Assembly (NCBI GenBank): GCA_029856045.1
Contig: JAHQWG010000044.1
Coordinates: 1 to 20,781 of the forward strand
DNA length: 20,781 bases
Source: Promethearchaeia archaeon
Lineage (GTDB): Archaea; Asgardarchaeota; Lokiarchaeia; Sigyniarchaeales; SOKP01
Reading direction: 5' to 3'
Below the pieces are notes generated by a model that was given only the letters and a program-made list of their open reading frames with translations, made no database searches and was not told where the DNA came from. Within the stretch, counting starts at the first letter, position 1; every line of letters begins with the position of its first letter. Of the stretch, positions 1,766 through 20,600 are shown one piece after another. A program made the position numbers and the translations under genes.

Positions 1766-2629
1766 CTAATACAAATTAGCAATAATTGGATTCAATAACG
1801 TTATTATCTCAGTCCTATGAGAAAATATTTCCTCCATTGTTATAGTTTCACGGTGAGATTTTGAATTTCTCAAATCAGCTAAATACAAACATGCATCTTT
1901 AATAATATGTAATGTCCCATTATCAATTTTATCCAATAAACAATCCTTAAATTCCTTTATTTCGATTAAACTCTCCTCATCCTCAAAAGATTCGATAATT
2001 TTTACCCAAACTCCCAATGGAATCGATTTATTATCTTTAAGCCATCCAAATTTTTTGTAAATATCAGGAGACATTTGTTTTTGAAAATATTTCTTTTTAA
2101 TTAAAGACTTAAAATGAACAGATATACATTCATCCAGCATAATTTCAAGCGCTTTAGCATAATTATTGATTATCGGAGAAGCATCAGGAAGATCATCATT
2201 TGATTTATAATATTCAAATATCTTCTCAGCAGAGATCAAAGAATCGCGAACTTTTTTACTCGTAATTTTATCAAGTTCTAATTTATCGGAATTATTTAAT
2301 TTTCTATAGATCTTATCTATCCTGGAAGCAATTTTACTAAGTAATTGCTTGTATTTCTCCAACCTTCCCTTCTGAGCTTTAGGATTTTCAATATATTGCT
2401 TGATCTCTGCTTCAATAAAAAACTTTATTACTTCTTTAATATCCTCTACCGATTTAAGACCGTGCTCGATTATCAGTTTTTTTAATTCTCTTTGTTGAAT
2501 TTGACCTTGGTTTAATCTCACAATCTTCTCTTTCAATACCACTAAATAATTCTCCTCAAAAAGAATATCCTTAATCGAATCTCCTAAAAAATTCAATTTG
2601 CCAAATCTCGGTTCTTCATTACCACTCAT
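1766..2629 (-). CDS. Hypothetical protein with putative C-terminal HEPN domain
   Basis: 287 aa helical protein; YAKALEIML helix followed by an RxxxxH motif (LRNSKSH) near the C-terminus. Confidence 0.6.
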   Translation of the reverse strand: MSGNEEPRFGKLNFLGDSIKDILFEENYLVVLKEKIVRLNQGQIQQRELKKLIIEHGLKSVEDIKEVIKFFIEAEIKQYIENPKAQKGRLEKYKQLLSKIASRIDKIYRKLNNSDKLELDKITSKKVRDSLISAEKIFEYYKSNDDLPDASPIINNYAKALEIMLDECISVHFKSLIKKKYFQKQMSPDIYKKFGWLKDNKSIPLGVWVKIIESFEDEESLIEIKEFKDCLLDKIDNGTLHIIKDACLYLADLRNSKSHRETITMEEIFSHRTEIITLLNPIIANLY

Positions 2630-3021
2630 AATCTTATTATTAATTTACGTCTCTTGCATAATTTTTTATTTCTACGTTCTTTTAATATAAGACGGGTTGT
2701 TATTAATTCTATAAATCATAAATAAAAAGAACATATATAAAGAAAAAATTGCAAAATGTAAGCTTATTATTCGTTTTTAGTTATTACATCAAAATTATAT
2801 TCATTTATTCGACAAATTTTTCTAAAAATCAATACATTATTTGAAATTAACCACTCAGATTTTAATAAAATTTTTAAGCAAACAACTTAATCCAAAATAA
2901 CTAAATAAAAGAACAAAAAAGTTTTAAATTAATCAATCAAAAATTAAAATTGTAACAATTAAAATCAATTTATTTTTGAAAATTAAATTGTTAAAAAATT
3001 ATTCATAAAAGTGTTAAAAAA

Positions 3022-5385: not shown

Positions 5386-5488
5386 AGGGACGTAGCTCAG
5401 CGGATAGAGCGGTGGCCTTCGGAGCCAAGGGTCGGGGAAAGATTCCCGTTTCGGGGGTTTTCCGAAAGTTCAAATCCCTCCGTTCCTA
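5386..5488 (+). tRNA. tRNA-Arg(TCG) with 30-nt T-arm intron
   Basis: Spliced 73-nt cloverleaf: acceptor AGGGACG/CGTTCCT, D arm GCTC/GAGC with A20, anticodon loop CTTCGGA, T arm GGGG^G-TTCAAAT-CCCTC; CCA not encoded. Confidence 0.93.
5438..5467 (+). other. tRNA-Arg intron at position 52/53
   Basis: Central helix TCGG/CCGA, bulges GG^A and AA^G; intron stem AAGATTCCC/GGGGGTTTT. Confidence 0.9.
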
Positions 5489-5730
5489 CTAGAATTTCAA
5501 TAAAATATGTTTCTTTAGTTTGAAATAACATAGAAAAAAATTAGAAAAAAACTCACTTAAGATAAGTAAATGCTATTAAATTTAAATTAATAAGATATGG
5601 CAATCAAAATTAAAGTCGAAATATTACCAGAAGGATTTTTTATTGGATTTTTATACATAAGTCATTAATATGATTATTGGTTAAATTAAATATATATAGG
5701 TAAAAAGAGAATAGAAGAATAGAGTTCATT

Positions 5731-9707: not shown

Positions 9708-12029
9708 ATGAATATTAATAAGTGGTCTAATTTGAGTGAGTTTGGAAATGATTATGACGATTGGAGTGATGATGATTTTCCTGATGATTGGGACGATGAA
9801 GGTGCAGATAATAAATATGTAGATAATGATGACGAGCTTCCTGATGATTGGGACAACGAAGATGTAGATATTGACTATTTAGATGACGATGATGATGATG
9901 AGCTTCCTGACGATTGGAATAATGAGGATATGGAATATAAAGAATTAGAAAATGATAACGATAACGATCTTCCAGACGATTGGAAGGATGATTCAATTAA
10001 TCCAAAAGAATCTTTCCAACCGAAAAATCTCTCTCTAACAGAAGATGATTTAAATCAAAATCATCAATTAGAGAATAACTTAAACGGTTTTTCTAAAGAT
10101 TTTGACGAGAAAATAGGAGAAATTGATTCTAGAATTAAAGGAAATATTTCAGAATTGTCCTTGATAAAAGATTTATTAAGAAATGATATAAAAACTTTTA
10201 CTCCATATGGAGATGCACAACACTATGATCTCATTATTGAAAATAACGATAAATTTTCAAGGATCCAAGTAAAGACTGGAACTTTTAATAAAGATGGATC
10301 TATATCCTTTCCACCATTTAGAACTTGTAAAGGTGAATACAAAAGTTATGAAGGAGATATTGAGTATTTTGGTATTTTTTGCCCAGAAAATAATAAATCC
10401 TACCTTATACCAATAGAGAGTGTTGGGTATGATAATAATTTTAGTATATTTCGAATAGGGAAGGAAAAGCAAGAGAAATTTATCATTGAAGTAGGTTCTC
10501 ATATTGATTATAAAAAAAATAAAAGTATAATTTCTAAAAATGACAATTCCATTCAATTAATGAAAGAAGGAAAAATAGTTTTAGATCAATTAGGCATAAA
10601 TAAAGAAAGAATTCTTATTTACGATGATAATATTAAGTTGAATGAAGGCAAAACCAAACATGTTTTTCATGAATTTAAGATTTCTGAAAAAAATAAACTT
10701 ATTGGTCATAAAATTACAACTCCTACACAAAAAGACATTTCTAAAGTGGCAGTTTCCTCAGATCTTATGAGAACAGGCATTATTATTAGTAATCCTATTA
10801 GAAACAATAATAATTATGATTTTATCCTAGTAAAGAATTATGAAGTAAATCGTAGAGATCTCCAATTTAAAGATAAAATCAAAGAGAATACACCGCAATT
10901 TTATAAAGTAAAAATAATTGAAGCAAAAATTGAAGAAAATAAGATTAAAGTCCCTTCAGATGAACTCAATTCAAAAACTCAAATTGATTATTGTGGGATA
11001 TATGATCCACGAGCTAATAAATCTTATCTTATTCCTGTTAAAGATATTCAATTTGAATTGAAAAATCCTAATGAATATTTGATTAATAAAAATAAAGAAT
11101 TGGTCGAAAATTTTGATCCAAAAAAGTATGGTGAAATAAATGAAATGATAATAGCTAGAGAATTTATGAAAAATGGCTATAATGTATTTACTCCCATTAT
11201 TGACAATGAAAGATATGATTTAGTCGTAAAAAAGAAAGGAAAATTTTACACAGTTCAAGTTAAAACTGGTAGAACTTATTGTGAAAAGGATAGTGCATAT
11301 GTGAGATTTGAAGCTTCTGTTCAAAAATCTGATAATTCTAGAGTTAATTATAAAGGTTATGTAGATTTTATAGCGGTAATTAATCGTAATTCGGATCATT
11401 GCTATTTAATCGATGTAGATAAATTACCTAATACTGATGGAAAATTAAAATTAAATGAAGAAGGAAAGGTTCATCACGGAACAATTTGGGCAAAGGATCA
11501 AGAATTTAAGAATATAGTTAAAATTGTACAAAAGTATGACATTGAGCAACAAAGAAAGATAACGATTAATAAACAAATACGTGAAATTACTAATAAACCC
11601 ATAGAAATTCGGCAAAATTTAGAAAGAAACCAAATAATAGACATTTTAAGCGGAAATATAAATTATGACGATATAAAATCAACAAACAAAATGTTAGATG
11701 AATATAGAAAAAATTTTGAAAATAAAAATCCTAAATCTAAGGCAATATATCAAAACATCATTACTAGAGATTTTAGAGATTTCCTTATAGAAGTCCCTGA
11801 ATTAAGAACTCAAATTATAGAGAAATTAAGACAAGAAGGTCTTTATGCGGAAGATGATAACAAACATCAAAATGTTTACGATTATATAGATAAATTTTAT
11901 GAGGAAAATGGCAGAGGTCCTAATACTACTGAGTTGTATCAAAAATTTTTAAATTGTAAAAGTTATATGTTAAGAAAAAAAATTAATGAAATTCGTAAAA
12001 ATAAACCACATTATTATAATGATTTATAA
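9708..12029 (+). CDS. Multidomain protein: acidic PDDW repeats, three group I intron-associated (I-Ssp6803I-like) PD-(D/E)XK nuclease domains, and a possible C-terminal wHTH
   Basis: Domain 1 KGNISE..PYGDAQHYDLII..RIQVKT..YLIP; domain 3 YGEINE..PIIDNERYDLVV..VQVKT..YLID; domain 2 degenerate (YDFIL..KVKII..YLIPV); tail YDYIDKFYEENGRGPNTTEL. Confidence 0.8.
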   Translation: MNINKWSNLSEFGNDYDDWSDDDFPDDWDDEGADNKYVDNDDELPDDWDNEDVDIDYLDDDDDDELPDDWNNEDMEYKELENDNDNDLPDDWKDDSINPKESFQPKNLSLTEDDLNQNHQLENNLNGFSKDFDEKIGEIDSRIKGNISELSLIKDLLRNDIKTFTPYGDAQHYDLIIENNDKFSRIQVKTGTFNKDGSISFPPFRTCKGEYKSYEGDIEYFGIFCPENNKSYLIPIESVGYDNNFSIFRIGKEKQEKFIIEVGSHIDYKKNKSIISKNDNSIQLMKEGKIVLDQLGINKERILIYDDNIKLNEGKTKHVFHEFKISEKNKLIGHKITTPTQKDISKVAVSSDLMRTGIIISNPIRNNNNYDFILVKNYEVNRRDLQFKDKIKENTPQFYKVKIIEAKIEENKIKVPSDELNSKTQIDYCGIYDPRANKSYLIPVKDIQFELKNPNEYLINKNKELVENFDPKKYGEINEMIIAREFMKNGYNVFTPIIDNERYDLVVKKKGKFYTVQVKTGRTYCEKDSAYVRFEASVQKSDNSRVNYKGYVDFIAVINRNSDHCYLIDVDKLPNTDGKLKLNEEGKVHHGTIWAKDQEFKNIVKIVQKYDIEQQRKITINKQIREITNKPIEIRQNLERNQIIDILSGNINYDDIKSTNKMLDEYRKNFENKNPKSKAIYQNIITRDFRDFLIEVPELRTQIIEKLRQEGLYAEDDNKHQNVYDYIDKFYEENGRGPNTTELYQKFLNCKSYMLRKKINEIRKNKPHYYNDL
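9750..9992 (+). repeat. Intragenic imperfect tandem repeat encoding (F/L)PDDW x4
   Basis: TTCCWGAYGATTGG recurs with a 60-66 bp period (aa 25, 45, 67, 89). Confidence 0.85.
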
Positions 12030-12092
12030 TAATCATTTGATTTTCAAAAAAGAATAATTCAGATGATTTTATGCCAAGGAGGGGATTTGAAC

Positions 12093-12122
12093 TTTCGGAA
12101 AGCCTCCGAGGTGGAAACTCTT
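12093..12122 (-). other. tRNA-Phe intron 2 (30 nt) at position 52/53
   Basis: Helix TCGG/CCGA, cuts GG^A and AA^G; stem AGAGTTTCC/GGAGGCTTT. Confidence 0.9.
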
Positions 12123-12160
12123 CCCCGATACCTGGATCTTCAGTCCAGTGCGTTCCCGGG

Positions 12161-12199
12161 TTGCGTTGCATAATGGAAAAATATTGATCCACTATACAT
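12161..12199 (-). other. tRNA-Phe intron 1 (39 nt) at position 15/16
   Basis: Helix GCGT/ACGC, bulges AG^A and AA^C; 11-bp intron stem TGTATAGTGGA/TCCATTATGCA. Confidence 0.9.
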
Positions 12200-12328
12200 C
12201 TACGCCACCTTGGCTTTTCTTTTTTATTTATTCTTTTACTATATTTTATTGGATTAATTAAAAATATTTTAAAAAATTATGTAATAATTGTTTTGTGAAT
12301 TAAACGATTTAAAAATATAAGAAGAAAA

Positions 12329-18836: not shown

Positions 18837-20086
18837 TTAAATCTTCAATACTTTTATTTGTCTCGGAATTTTCAAATCTTCTTCTGTTCCAACGCAAATT
18901 ATTGAATTTATTTTCATATTTACTGCCAAGGAAATTAGTCTTTTAGATAAAATACCATCTATTATTAAGTATTTTATATTTGAAAATTCACTCAAATTAT
19001 CAAATAATTCTGCAGTATTTAATTCAAAAAGAACATTTTCCTGTGAGTCAATTCCAATTGCTTTTTTTGTTCCTACAGAATTAGAAATATACTCACTAAT
19101 TTTTGATCCTTTATCGAGTTTCAATATTTTTAAAATATTTTTATATTTATTCTTCGAATCTTTTATTTTTTTTTCAATTATTGGTTTCCTTTTACGTGAT
19201 GTATCTACTGATGAATTTTTATTATTAATAATTTCTGAAATTGCTCTCTTATTTTGAAGTGCTTTAACCATCTGTTTTCTTGTTAATTCTTCAACTTCAA
19301 GACCATCAGGAGCTCTTGCAACATAATCAAGGTGTGCTACTTGCAATAATTCATTTAATATTATTGTGCCTCCCCGGTCTCCATCTAAAAAAGCAGTAAT
19401 TGGGCTTTTATTATGAGTTAATTCAATTATTGACTTAGGAATTTGAGTACCTTCCACTGCAATAGCATTTTTGATATCTATACGCAGTAAATTTAAGACA
19501 TCTGCTCTTCCTTCAACTATTAAGAGATCTTGGCTAATATCAACATCAGGACCTGCAGGTAAATTTTCATCTCCCCATTTTTTAATTTCACTAAGCCTAA
19601 TATCTTGAGAAATTTGCTCTTCAATTTCCCTTGGCTCGGGACTATTTTCATCCCATTTTTTTAATAACTCTGTGGCTCGTTCAATAATTTGTTTTCTTTT
19701 GTTTTCGCGAATATCTTTGATATCTTTAAGGTCAATTTGTGCGGAACAAGGACCTACACGACTTACGGTTTCTATTGTCGCTGCCAATAAAACGGTCTCT
19801 TTTCTTGTTAGACTTGATGGTATAATTATTTTACCTTTAGAAATTCCCTCTTCGGTCGTTAATTCGACCTCAATTCTTCCTATTCTCCCACTTTTTTGTA
19901 AATCCCTTAAGTCTAAATCCGATAAAAGACCTTCGGTTTAGGCGATATGACCGAAGTGGCTATTTATCTTTGCCCAAAAATGGCACCGACAATATCGCTC
20001 TTTTCAACCACTCCATTTACTTTATAATTTGCTATGATATGGTATTTCGTAGTGAAATTAGAAGTATAATGATCATTATCTGAAAT
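18837..20086 (-). CDS. dnaG: Archaeal DnaG (exosome-associated, TOPRIM); two exons, join(20086..19970, 19937..18837), ~405 aa, probable ATT start
   Basis: Exon 1 ..KYHIIANYKVNGVVEKSDIVGAIFGQ; exon 2 TEGLLSDLDLRDLQKSGRIGRIEV..RVGPC..IVEGRADVLNLL..AFLDGDRGG; SD-like GAGGAGTGTGA (20104-20094) 7 nt before ATT. Confidence 0.9.
19938..19969 (-). other. Putative 32-nt BHB/BHL-type mRNA intron in dnaG
   Basis: GGGC-AA^A-GATA...TATC-GCCT-AA^A; cleavage after the 2nd bulge nucleotide on each strand rejoins CAA|ACC (Gln|Thr) in frame. Confidence 0.85.
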
Positions 20087-20600
20087 TATTTAATCACACT
20101 CCTCTTTTTTTGTAATTTAATTTTTATCTAAATTTTTCAATTTTTAAATGAATAATATATAATAGTGAAATAATTTTGATTTATACTAATTTCGTCATAT
20201 AAATTATTTTTATTAACAATATTAAAGTAGAACTTTTCAAATTTATTTTTTTGGAATTTAAATTCAAATTTACCTAATACTTAGGTATTATTCTATTATT
20301 TAATTTTTAAATGAAAATATTAATATTATGTATTGGGATGAGAAAATAATTGAAAAGATATTTACAACTCACATTCATAAAAATTTTAAGACAATATATA
20401 AAACAAATTTTGGTAGATTCTATCTCTATTTTAAAAAGGATAATGAAAATGAAATCTCTGGTAGAGTTGTTTTTTTTCCTTCATCTTATTGAAATTCTCC
20501 TAATATTTTTATTAAACCAGTTAAAAAAAATAACAATCTTAAAATTAGGAAACAATTTTTATAGATTCACCTCTTTTTTATTCCAACAAAGTAATTATAT

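Follow-up and report, generated by a model that had tools for sequence, protein, structure and literature searches.

How did a 32-nt intron of the type removed by the tRNA-splicing endonuclease come to interrupt the dnaG gene of an Asgard archaeon, and did it come from a tRNA? Eukaryotes have no closer known relatives than the Asgard archaea, which lends wider interest to protein-coding genes of this group whose mRNA must be spliced by protein enzymes. For the arrival of archaeal endonuclease-spliced introns at new sites, a proven jump from a tRNA into an mRNA would give a route; a recent preprint found no general one in Asgard archaea (10.64898/2026.10.13.758758). The locus studied here has been proposed as such a case: in the window, by which we mean the whole stretch of 20,781 nucleotides that was analysed, the intron-bearing dnaG gene lies on the same contig as two tRNA genes with 30-nt introns in their T arms. 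An earlier note on this DNA had seen that the three introns share a central hairpin and register, and had proposed either a family of mobile ~30-nt BHB introns in tRNA and protein genes, with a possible jump from a tRNA into an mRNA, or a shared loop recognised by a protein.

The locus and its host genome

The contig (C43) belongs to a genome of 3.34 Mb with 29% G+C, whose relatives in the public record are labelled Promethearchaeota (Loki-type Asgard archaea). ARAGORN found only 25 tRNAs in this complete-looking genome. For the processing of introns, it encodes two EndA paralogues of ~200 aa (PF01974 matches, 103 and 69 bits) and one RtcB (PF01139 match, 579 bits). The features on which the comparison is built are collected in Table 1. 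As a separate observation, a 773-aa ORF in the window (9708-12029, plus strand) contains three PD-(D/E)XK endonuclease (PDDEXK_5) repeats (E 3e-54) and adjoins the tRNA-Phe and tRNA-Gly genes.

Table 1. Introns of the window and the parts of the genes around them (positions refer to the window; spans are given as read)
Feature	Position	Strand	Remarks
dnaG exon 1	19970..20089	-	no ATG, GTG or TTG in the open frame; start probably ATA/ATT at 20089-20084
dnaG exon 2	18840..19937	-	366 codons; Toprim domain (Toprim_4, E 3.6e-08)
dnaG mini-intron, 32 nt	19938..19969	-	BHB type, relaxed; exon-exon outer helix of length 0
dnaG exon strand GGGC of the 4-bp central helix	19972..19975	-	pairs with GCCU at 19943-19940
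5′ bulge of the dnaG intron	19971-19969	-	reads AA|A
dnaG intron strand GCCU of the central helix	19940..19943	-	partner of exon GGGC
3′ bulge of the dnaG intron	19939-19937	-	reads AA|A
dnaG core CC-ACUUC-GG	19951..19959	-	hairpin apex: GCC/GGU stem and pentaloop
First 7 nt of dnaG exon 2, ACCGAAG	19931..19937	-	complementary to intron CUUCGGU at 19956-19950
tRNA-Arg(UCG) gene	5386-5488	+	30-nt intron at position 52/53
tRNA-Arg(UCG) intron, 30 nt	5438..5467	+	core CCGTTTCGG at 5446-5454, then 7 nt, CCGA, AA
tRNA-Phe(GAA) gene	12072-12214	-	two introns, 39 nt and 30 nt
tRNA-Phe intron 1, 39 nt	12161-12199	-	without the core
tRNA-Phe intron 2, 30 nt, position 52/53	12093..12122	-	core CCACCTCGG at 12114-12106, register as in tRNA-Arg
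tRNA-Asp D-loop intron, 30 nt	3676-3647	-	putative, hand-parsed; loop TATAAT; without the core

A relaxed BHB intron interrupts dnaG

Exon 1 of dnaG ends with ...GCC ATT TTT GGG CAA at position 19970 and exon 2 opens with ACC GAA GGT at 19937, and the predicted spliced junction runs from ...GGGCAA to ACCGAAGG. Joining the exons yields the in-frame motif ...AIFGQ|TEGLLS..., which is unbroken at exactly this point in intron-less dnaG relatives. The intron combines two 3-nt bulges with a 4-bp helix, the basic layout of a BHB motif, with predicted cleavage after the second base of each bulge, and has GAUA/UAUC as its inner helix. It departs from the strict hBHBh′ form, in which helices flank both bulges, in that it has an inner helix only. 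The host also encodes the splicing endonuclease and the RtcB ligase expected for a BHB intron. Most likely, then, the tRNA-splicing endonuclease would cut the dnaG intron from the mRNA and RtcB would rejoin the exons.

The start of the gene deserves a comment of its own. The ATA/ATT is preceded at 6-10 nt by a GGAGTG that resembles a Shine-Dalgarno motif and reads GGAGTGATC in relatives (window 20084-20108, minus strand). At another dnaG locus (L009), the sole GTG falls within the Shine-Dalgarno-like motif and is followed immediately by TAG; translation of dnaG in the host's family therefore seems to start at ATT (or ATA).

The dnaG intron is shared across genera and keeps its apex

Is the intron a newcomer at this site? 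The same GQ|TEG codon junction holds an intron in 27 of 80 further dnaG loci taken from public Promethearchaeota genomes, and none in the other 53. All five genomes of genus g1 have the intron there, as do 9 of the 14 other loci examined of the family and a second family of the order; five genera lack it. The 29 distinct intron sequences follow one plan, roughly A-GAU-AA...RYC-NNNUC-GGY-(5-6 nt)-AUC-GGCU-AA (alignment A3), with a 5′ spacer of variable length. Their central helix is paired in 29 of 29 cases, and the intron changes in step with the Gly codon at its wobble base (CG 22, AU 3, GC 2, GU 1, UG 1), a degree of pairing and covariation that none of 500 shuffles reached.

The apex is retained along with the splice site. 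RYC-N5-GGY, with its G+C apex, occupies the site of the core in 25 of the 29 orthologous introns. Within the pentaloop, the first three positions are variable, while position 4 is U in all 29 introns and position 5 is C in 28, which makes these two bases as conserved as the splice-site helix. The core is therefore a long-standing part of the dnaG intron, also in genera in which the T-arm family was not found. Thus the CC-RYYTC-GG core, whose disappearance from dnaG orthologues the earlier note had named as evidence against its proposal, persists in them, in the broader form CC-NNNUC-GG.

What could hold the loop in place? The UCGG of the intron is complementary to C-N-G-A in the Thr-Glu codons at the beginning of exon 2, a site right after the 3′ bulge, where the absent outer helix would lie; in the gene studied here, the complement extends to 7 bp. 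The resulting CUUCGGU/ACCGAAG pairing between intron and exon 2 could flank the 3′ bulge. In the minimum-energy fold of the 80-nt dnaG region, the intron pairs with exon 2 at -18.0 kcal/mol, compared with only -7.7 for the BHB. The Thr codon is ACC in 9 of 25 intron-bearing dnaG genes versus 3 of 45 intron-less ones, although these counts ignore relatedness. A caveat raised with the original proposal, that CTTCGG might instead be explained by pairing with exon 2, finds some support in the complement and in the preference for ACC. The UC of the loop could be held by pairing with the invariant GA of the exon 2 Glu codon, or else by recognition by a factor. As a cause of the UC loop, however, pairing with exon 2 does not transfer to the introns of the tRNA genes or of the mevalonate kinase gene described below.

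Many dnaG introns further contain a tandem 9-nt repeat at their 3′ end (A3; L127, L143, L156), for example AUUCGGCUA twice, or AUCGGCUUA and then AUCGGCUAA. The strand on the 3′ side of the apex is thus a copy of the 3′ splice-site strand, and AGCCAA on the 5′ side of the apex is similar to the exon end GGCCAA. This repeat could be an alternative 3′ splice module or point to an origin by duplication. AUCGGCU occurs twice, 9 nt apart, in many relatives, and the apex was considered as a second 3′ splice module; in g1 and a few others the alternative helix shows no covariation with the exon, and the repeat is left here as an observation.

The T-arm introns form a family that is gained and lost among tRNAs

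Removing the predicted introns gives a good cloverleaf for tRNA-Arg and a perfect one for tRNA-Phe. The T-arm introns of the two genes are identical at 21 of 30 positions, and compensatory pair changes are found between them; when the family is extended to a third tRNA, its members share 21-24 of 30 positions. Their loops read ACCUC, GCCUC, GUUUC, UUUUC or AUUUC.

Comparison of genomes within g1 reveals how unevenly these introns are distributed. G000, G002 and G004 have the T-arm intron of tRNA-Arg. The orthologous locus of G001 (...GGGTCGGGG|GTTCAAATCC...; L024 ~1473-1545) lacks exactly this intron, which confirms the intron boundaries. The tRNA-Arg of G003 has no T-arm intron and carries an anticodon-loop intron instead. 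The third tRNA harbors an intron of the family at 52/53 in G002 and none in the G000 orthologue. Changes are also seen elsewhere in these genes: the D-arm intron of tRNA-Phe in G001 and G002 (L033, L034) differs from that of G000, and an extra anticodon-stem intron is found there, so tRNA introns turn over rapidly within the genus.

A relative of the hairpin is found outside g1. A tRNA of genus g8 (L189, G011:C9 ~2629-2663, minus strand) has a 30-nt intron in its T loop, at 59/60, with UUCG/UGAA as a different splice-site helix. The hairpin of this intron, AAAAUUCC-AUUUC-GGAAUUUU, hardly differs from the T-arm hairpin of G002, and the intron is one of the weaker matches to the covariance model of the T-arm family (R1, see below). 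The hairpin module is therefore older than g1 and able to occupy different sites.

We also attempted a census of tRNA introns, in which strict BHB motifs in G+C-rich islands were sought, up to three candidates were removed per gene and the products were passed to ARAGORN. The scan recovered 21 tRNAs and few introns, because many introns of this genome have relaxed motifs, and it was dropped as a census; the Arg and Phe structures were validated by it.

The dnaG intron does not qualify as a member of the T-arm family

The observations behind the proposed jump hold in every coordinate: the dnaG, Arg and Phe cores, the 7-nt spacer, the 4-nt helix strand, the AA at the end and the A at the start are all in place, and tRNA-Phe intron 1 and the hand-parsed Asp intron do lack the core. 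But do they make one family of the three introns? We approached this with two covariance models, R1 for the T-arm family and R2 for the dnaG intron. In 31 genomes, R1 scored 57-63 bits on seven loci only, distributed over four genomes of g1; six of these seven top loci had been used in building the model and the seventh is identical to one of them. The best match of R1 outside the family, at C27:217650, reached 22.6 bits and is a false positive, a palindrome in coding sequence. Even with filters off, R1 did not report the dnaG intron at E 10, and its only match in another intron is a 15-nt stretch at the apex of the mevalonate kinase intron, with 12 bits. Conversely, R2 applied to the whole genome reported dnaG alone, at 46.1 bits, and none of the T-arm, mevalonate kinase, mutase or ychF introns. 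The comparison by covariance model that the earlier note had suggested is thus negative both ways between dnaG and T-arm introns.

Direct comparison leads to a similar picture. When the introns are aligned at their 3′ ends, 15-17 of 30 positions agree between dnaG and the T-arm introns, nearly all of them at the apex and at the fixed ends; beyond the 9-nt apex, the sequences are unrelated. A jump had led to the expectation that some relatives would have dnaG introns closer to the tRNA introns. Those of other genera with the same register are less alike, at 12-14 of 30 positions versus ~16 of 30 for the dnaG intron of g1, so that only a small excess of likeness is left in the genus that bears the T-arm family. 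Distributions differ as well, in that the dnaG intron spans genera whereas high-scoring T-arm members occur in four g1 genomes only. Of the four features that define the T-arm family, three (model score, identity and distribution) separate the dnaG intron from it; the fourth, the apex with its 3′ register, is found in the dnaG intron and also in that of the mevalonate kinase gene. Given the age of the dnaG intron, the negative model tests and distribution, and a motif that shows no genomic enrichment, there is no support for a recent jump of a tRNA intron into dnaG, and the dnaG intron does not appear to belong to the T-arm family.

Could the remaining likeness be a coincidence, with two short G+C-closed hairpins in ~30-nt BHB introns agreeing in 7-8 of 9 apex bases by chance? 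Only ~9 nt are common, and the match was chosen after five introns had been viewed. The core motif is not enriched, with 238 occurrences in the genome and 286 in the reversed genome, and a loose search for the core in a BHB context was abandoned as uninformative, since such contexts are no more common in the genome than in its reversal (1,287 versus 1,413 matches). The 22.6 bits reached by a coding palindrome illustrate that chance hairpins arise in an A+T-rich genome, and 30 nt is a common intron length here, seen for instance in the Asp intron. Against chance speak shuffles that preserve the pairs and loops of dnaG: an identity of 16/30 to a T-arm intron was obtained in 1.8% of trials (P 0.018) and a core match of 8/9 in 0.37% (P 0.0037). 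The likeness is therefore nominally above chance, with the reservation that the match was picked after the fact. We regard pure coincidence as improbable, also in view of the loops of further introns described in the next section.

A strict search for core, register and BHB returned as real introns only those of tRNA-Arg, tRNA-Phe and dnaG, and that of mevalonate kinase with one mismatch in the central helix. One further sequence with core and register (C11:40381-40412) lies within an uninterrupted hydrolase reading frame and was discarded as a false positive.

Other mini-introns carry a pentaloop ending in UC

The mevalonate kinase mRNA carries a 31-nt intron (C36:116809-116839; L046/L049) whose core, CCACUUCGG, is identical to that of dnaG and is followed by 7 nt, a helix strand and 2 nt in the dnaG register. 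In the orthologues of four other genera the loops are ACUUC, AUUUC or AAUUC, and the stems change. Within g1, the intron is present in G000 and missing from G001, G002 and G004 (L050-L052); its absence from three genomes of the genus and presence in four other genera suggest a recent and precise loss in g1. As an alternative to the jump, the earlier note had considered a shared loop recognised by a protein. The weaker idea of a shared loop or a wider set of introns is partly supported: dnaG orthologues keep CC-NNNUC-GG, the mevalonate kinase intron has the identical CCACTTCGG and a T-loop intron of another genus bears the T-arm hairpin.

The gene of a B12-binding mutase small subunit offers the opposite case. 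Its 32-nt intron (G000:C32 ~5673-5717; L047/L191) has the loop AGUUC and occurs, among 11 orthologues with a readable junction, only in G000 and G004 (L194); the gene is intron-less in L192, L193 and seven other genera. Together with the intron come five synonymous flanking changes that build a G+C-rich exon helix, from CCA GGT ATT GAT GGT in the intron-less gene to CCC GGC ATA GA|C GGG in G000. The mutase intron thus looks like a recent gain in a coding gene.

Pentaloops ending in UC are accordingly found in four intron lineages: dnaG, mevalonate kinase, T-arm and mutase. All four hairpin lineages have this ending, compared with 5.6% of the 11,793 hairpins in the genome that have 7 bp and a loop of 5 nt, and loop positions 4 and 5 are kept in the 29 dnaG introns as well as in the mevalonate kinase and T-arm lineages, both of which speak against coincidence. 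The ychF intron, the Asp intron, Phe intron 1 and several A+U-rich anticodon-loop introns do not have the loop. The UC pentaloop is hence a feature of a subset of mini-introns, conserved within old lineages. Since UC is kept in these lineages while the stems diverge, selection on the loop is needed whatever its origin.

A genome-wide search for further coding introns, based on BHB pairing and restoration of the frame, recovered the ychF intron; its 177,449 raw candidates fell to 286 after folding, mostly noise, and were set aside.

Does the common loop point to a common origin? Introns of tRNA and protein genes in this lineage could have been seeded by a single mobile hairpin module, its NNYUC pentaloop closed by G+C, so that the dnaG, mevalonate kinase and T-arm introns would be diverged copies; the direction would then be from an old mRNA intron or a common pool into tRNAs, and not the reverse. 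Several observations fit such a history: the identical CCACUUCGG of dnaG and mevalonate kinase in the same register, a mevalonate kinase apex that matches the Arg/Pro T-arm apex at 12-13 of 15-16 positions (hand count) and to which R1 locally gives its 12 bits, the same hairpin at 52/53 in g1 and at 59/60 in g8, the turnover of introns in both tRNAs and coding genes (mutase, mevalonate kinase) of g1, and shuffle P values of 0.004-0.02. However, there is no similarity beyond the apex, neither covariance model detects the introns of the other group and the motif search brought no hidden family to light. In the old dnaG and mevalonate kinase introns, the stems diverged while UC stayed, and selection on the loop alone can yield such a likeness; the young mutase intron shares the type of loop only, with 3-9 of 30 positions. 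Moreover, almost no copying of tRNA introns across isotypes was found in the Asgard lineages studied (10.64898/2026.10.13.758758). On balance, we consider a common origin unlikely.

Discussion

How, then, are the dnaG and T-arm introns best understood together? We favor, at a probability of roughly 60%, an old dnaG intron with an apex of its own and a separate T-arm family, the likeness between the two being confined to a shared design of short introns. The dnaG intron would be an old, vertically inherited mini-intron, of which the CC-NNNUC-GG apex would itself be a conserved part. The T-arm introns, taken at that same joint probability, would make up a separate mobile family of 30-nt hairpins that moves among the T arms of several tRNA types and is gained and lost within g1. 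What the two would have in common is the design: they begin with A, have an inner stem of ~9 bp and a pentaloop that is closed by G+C and ends in UC, and carry a helix strand of 4 nt and two bulge bases. The evidence for this account consists of the anatomy of the introns, their conservation and covariation, their distribution among genomes and the negative model tests. The shared hairpin design with its conserved NNNUC loop is real and may reflect either a common constraint or a common origin of the module.

Small introns have evidently been gained and lost on a short time scale in g1, in tRNA genes as well as in protein genes as judged from the comparison of loci. This short-term turnover in both types of gene keeps a common process in play as a minority reading. 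The ~30-nt mini-introns of Lokiarchaeal tRNA and protein genes might all stem from one ongoing process, in which the UC pentaloop hairpin, ~9-10 bp from the splice motif, would act as a functional recognition element; we find this rather unlikely. If it were true, the gains of the mutase and T-arm introns, the losses of the mevalonate kinase and tRNA-Arg introns and the old dnaG intron would be stages of one life cycle.

We would like to place these introns into the context of known systems. The closest published case to the dnaG intron is the intron in the cbf5 pre-mRNA of Crenarchaeota, for which splicing was shown experimentally (Yokobori et al. 2009, PMC2738675, and earlier work cited there). 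Both introns are short, lie in a protein gene, have a BHB or relaxed motif and show patchy gain and loss. For the hosts of the cbf5 intron, a broad-specificity heterotetrameric endonuclease is expected, and the host studied here has two EndA paralogues, as do hosts with that enzyme. The two cases differ in gene (dnaG) and phylum (Promethearchaeota), and in that splicing of the dnaG intron is predicted from its sequence. No published description of the dnaG intron was found in a full-text search of the literature, nor any publication that links BHB introns of mRNAs and tRNAs in Asgard archaea.

For the tRNA introns, the parallel is with the transposition families of Thermoproteales (Sugahara 2008, Fujishima 2010, as cited in 10.64898/2026.10.13.758758). 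Like these, the T-arm family described here spans tRNA types, is present or absent among close relatives and has a related hairpin at another T-arm position in another genus, g8. Unlike these, it occurs in an Asgard lineage, and that preprint found such families nearly absent from the Asgard lineages it studied. The dnaG intron does not qualify as a member of this transposition-like family, its ~50% identity being confined to the apex and the models being negative. Heavily interrupted tRNA genes are known from Asgard archaea (Valentin-Alvarado et al. 2024, PMC11291895; preprint 10.64898/2026.10.13.758758), and the tRNAs of the present genome likewise have multiple, non-canonical introns, including ones in the T arm. 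In a term search of the text of these two sources, neither introns of protein genes nor a shared loop motif were mentioned.

Although the evidence speaks against a jump from tRNA to mRNA in the case of dnaG, the locus provides material for the question of how introns arrive at new sites: a genus, g1, in which mini-introns of tRNA and protein genes are present or absent between close relatives, and an intron family found in several types of tRNA, with a relative that occupies another position of the T arm. The NNNUC loop that is common to otherwise unrelated mini-introns adds a feature that can be tested.

A last observation concerns the T-arm introns themselves. They contain UCGGGGGUU (UCGGAGGCU in tRNA-Phe), which equals the mature exon junction UCGG GG|GUU, and their strand CCGA can pair with the exon or with an intron-internal copy across a 7-nt loop. 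These hints make it plausible that the T-arm introns originated by local duplication of the T arm.
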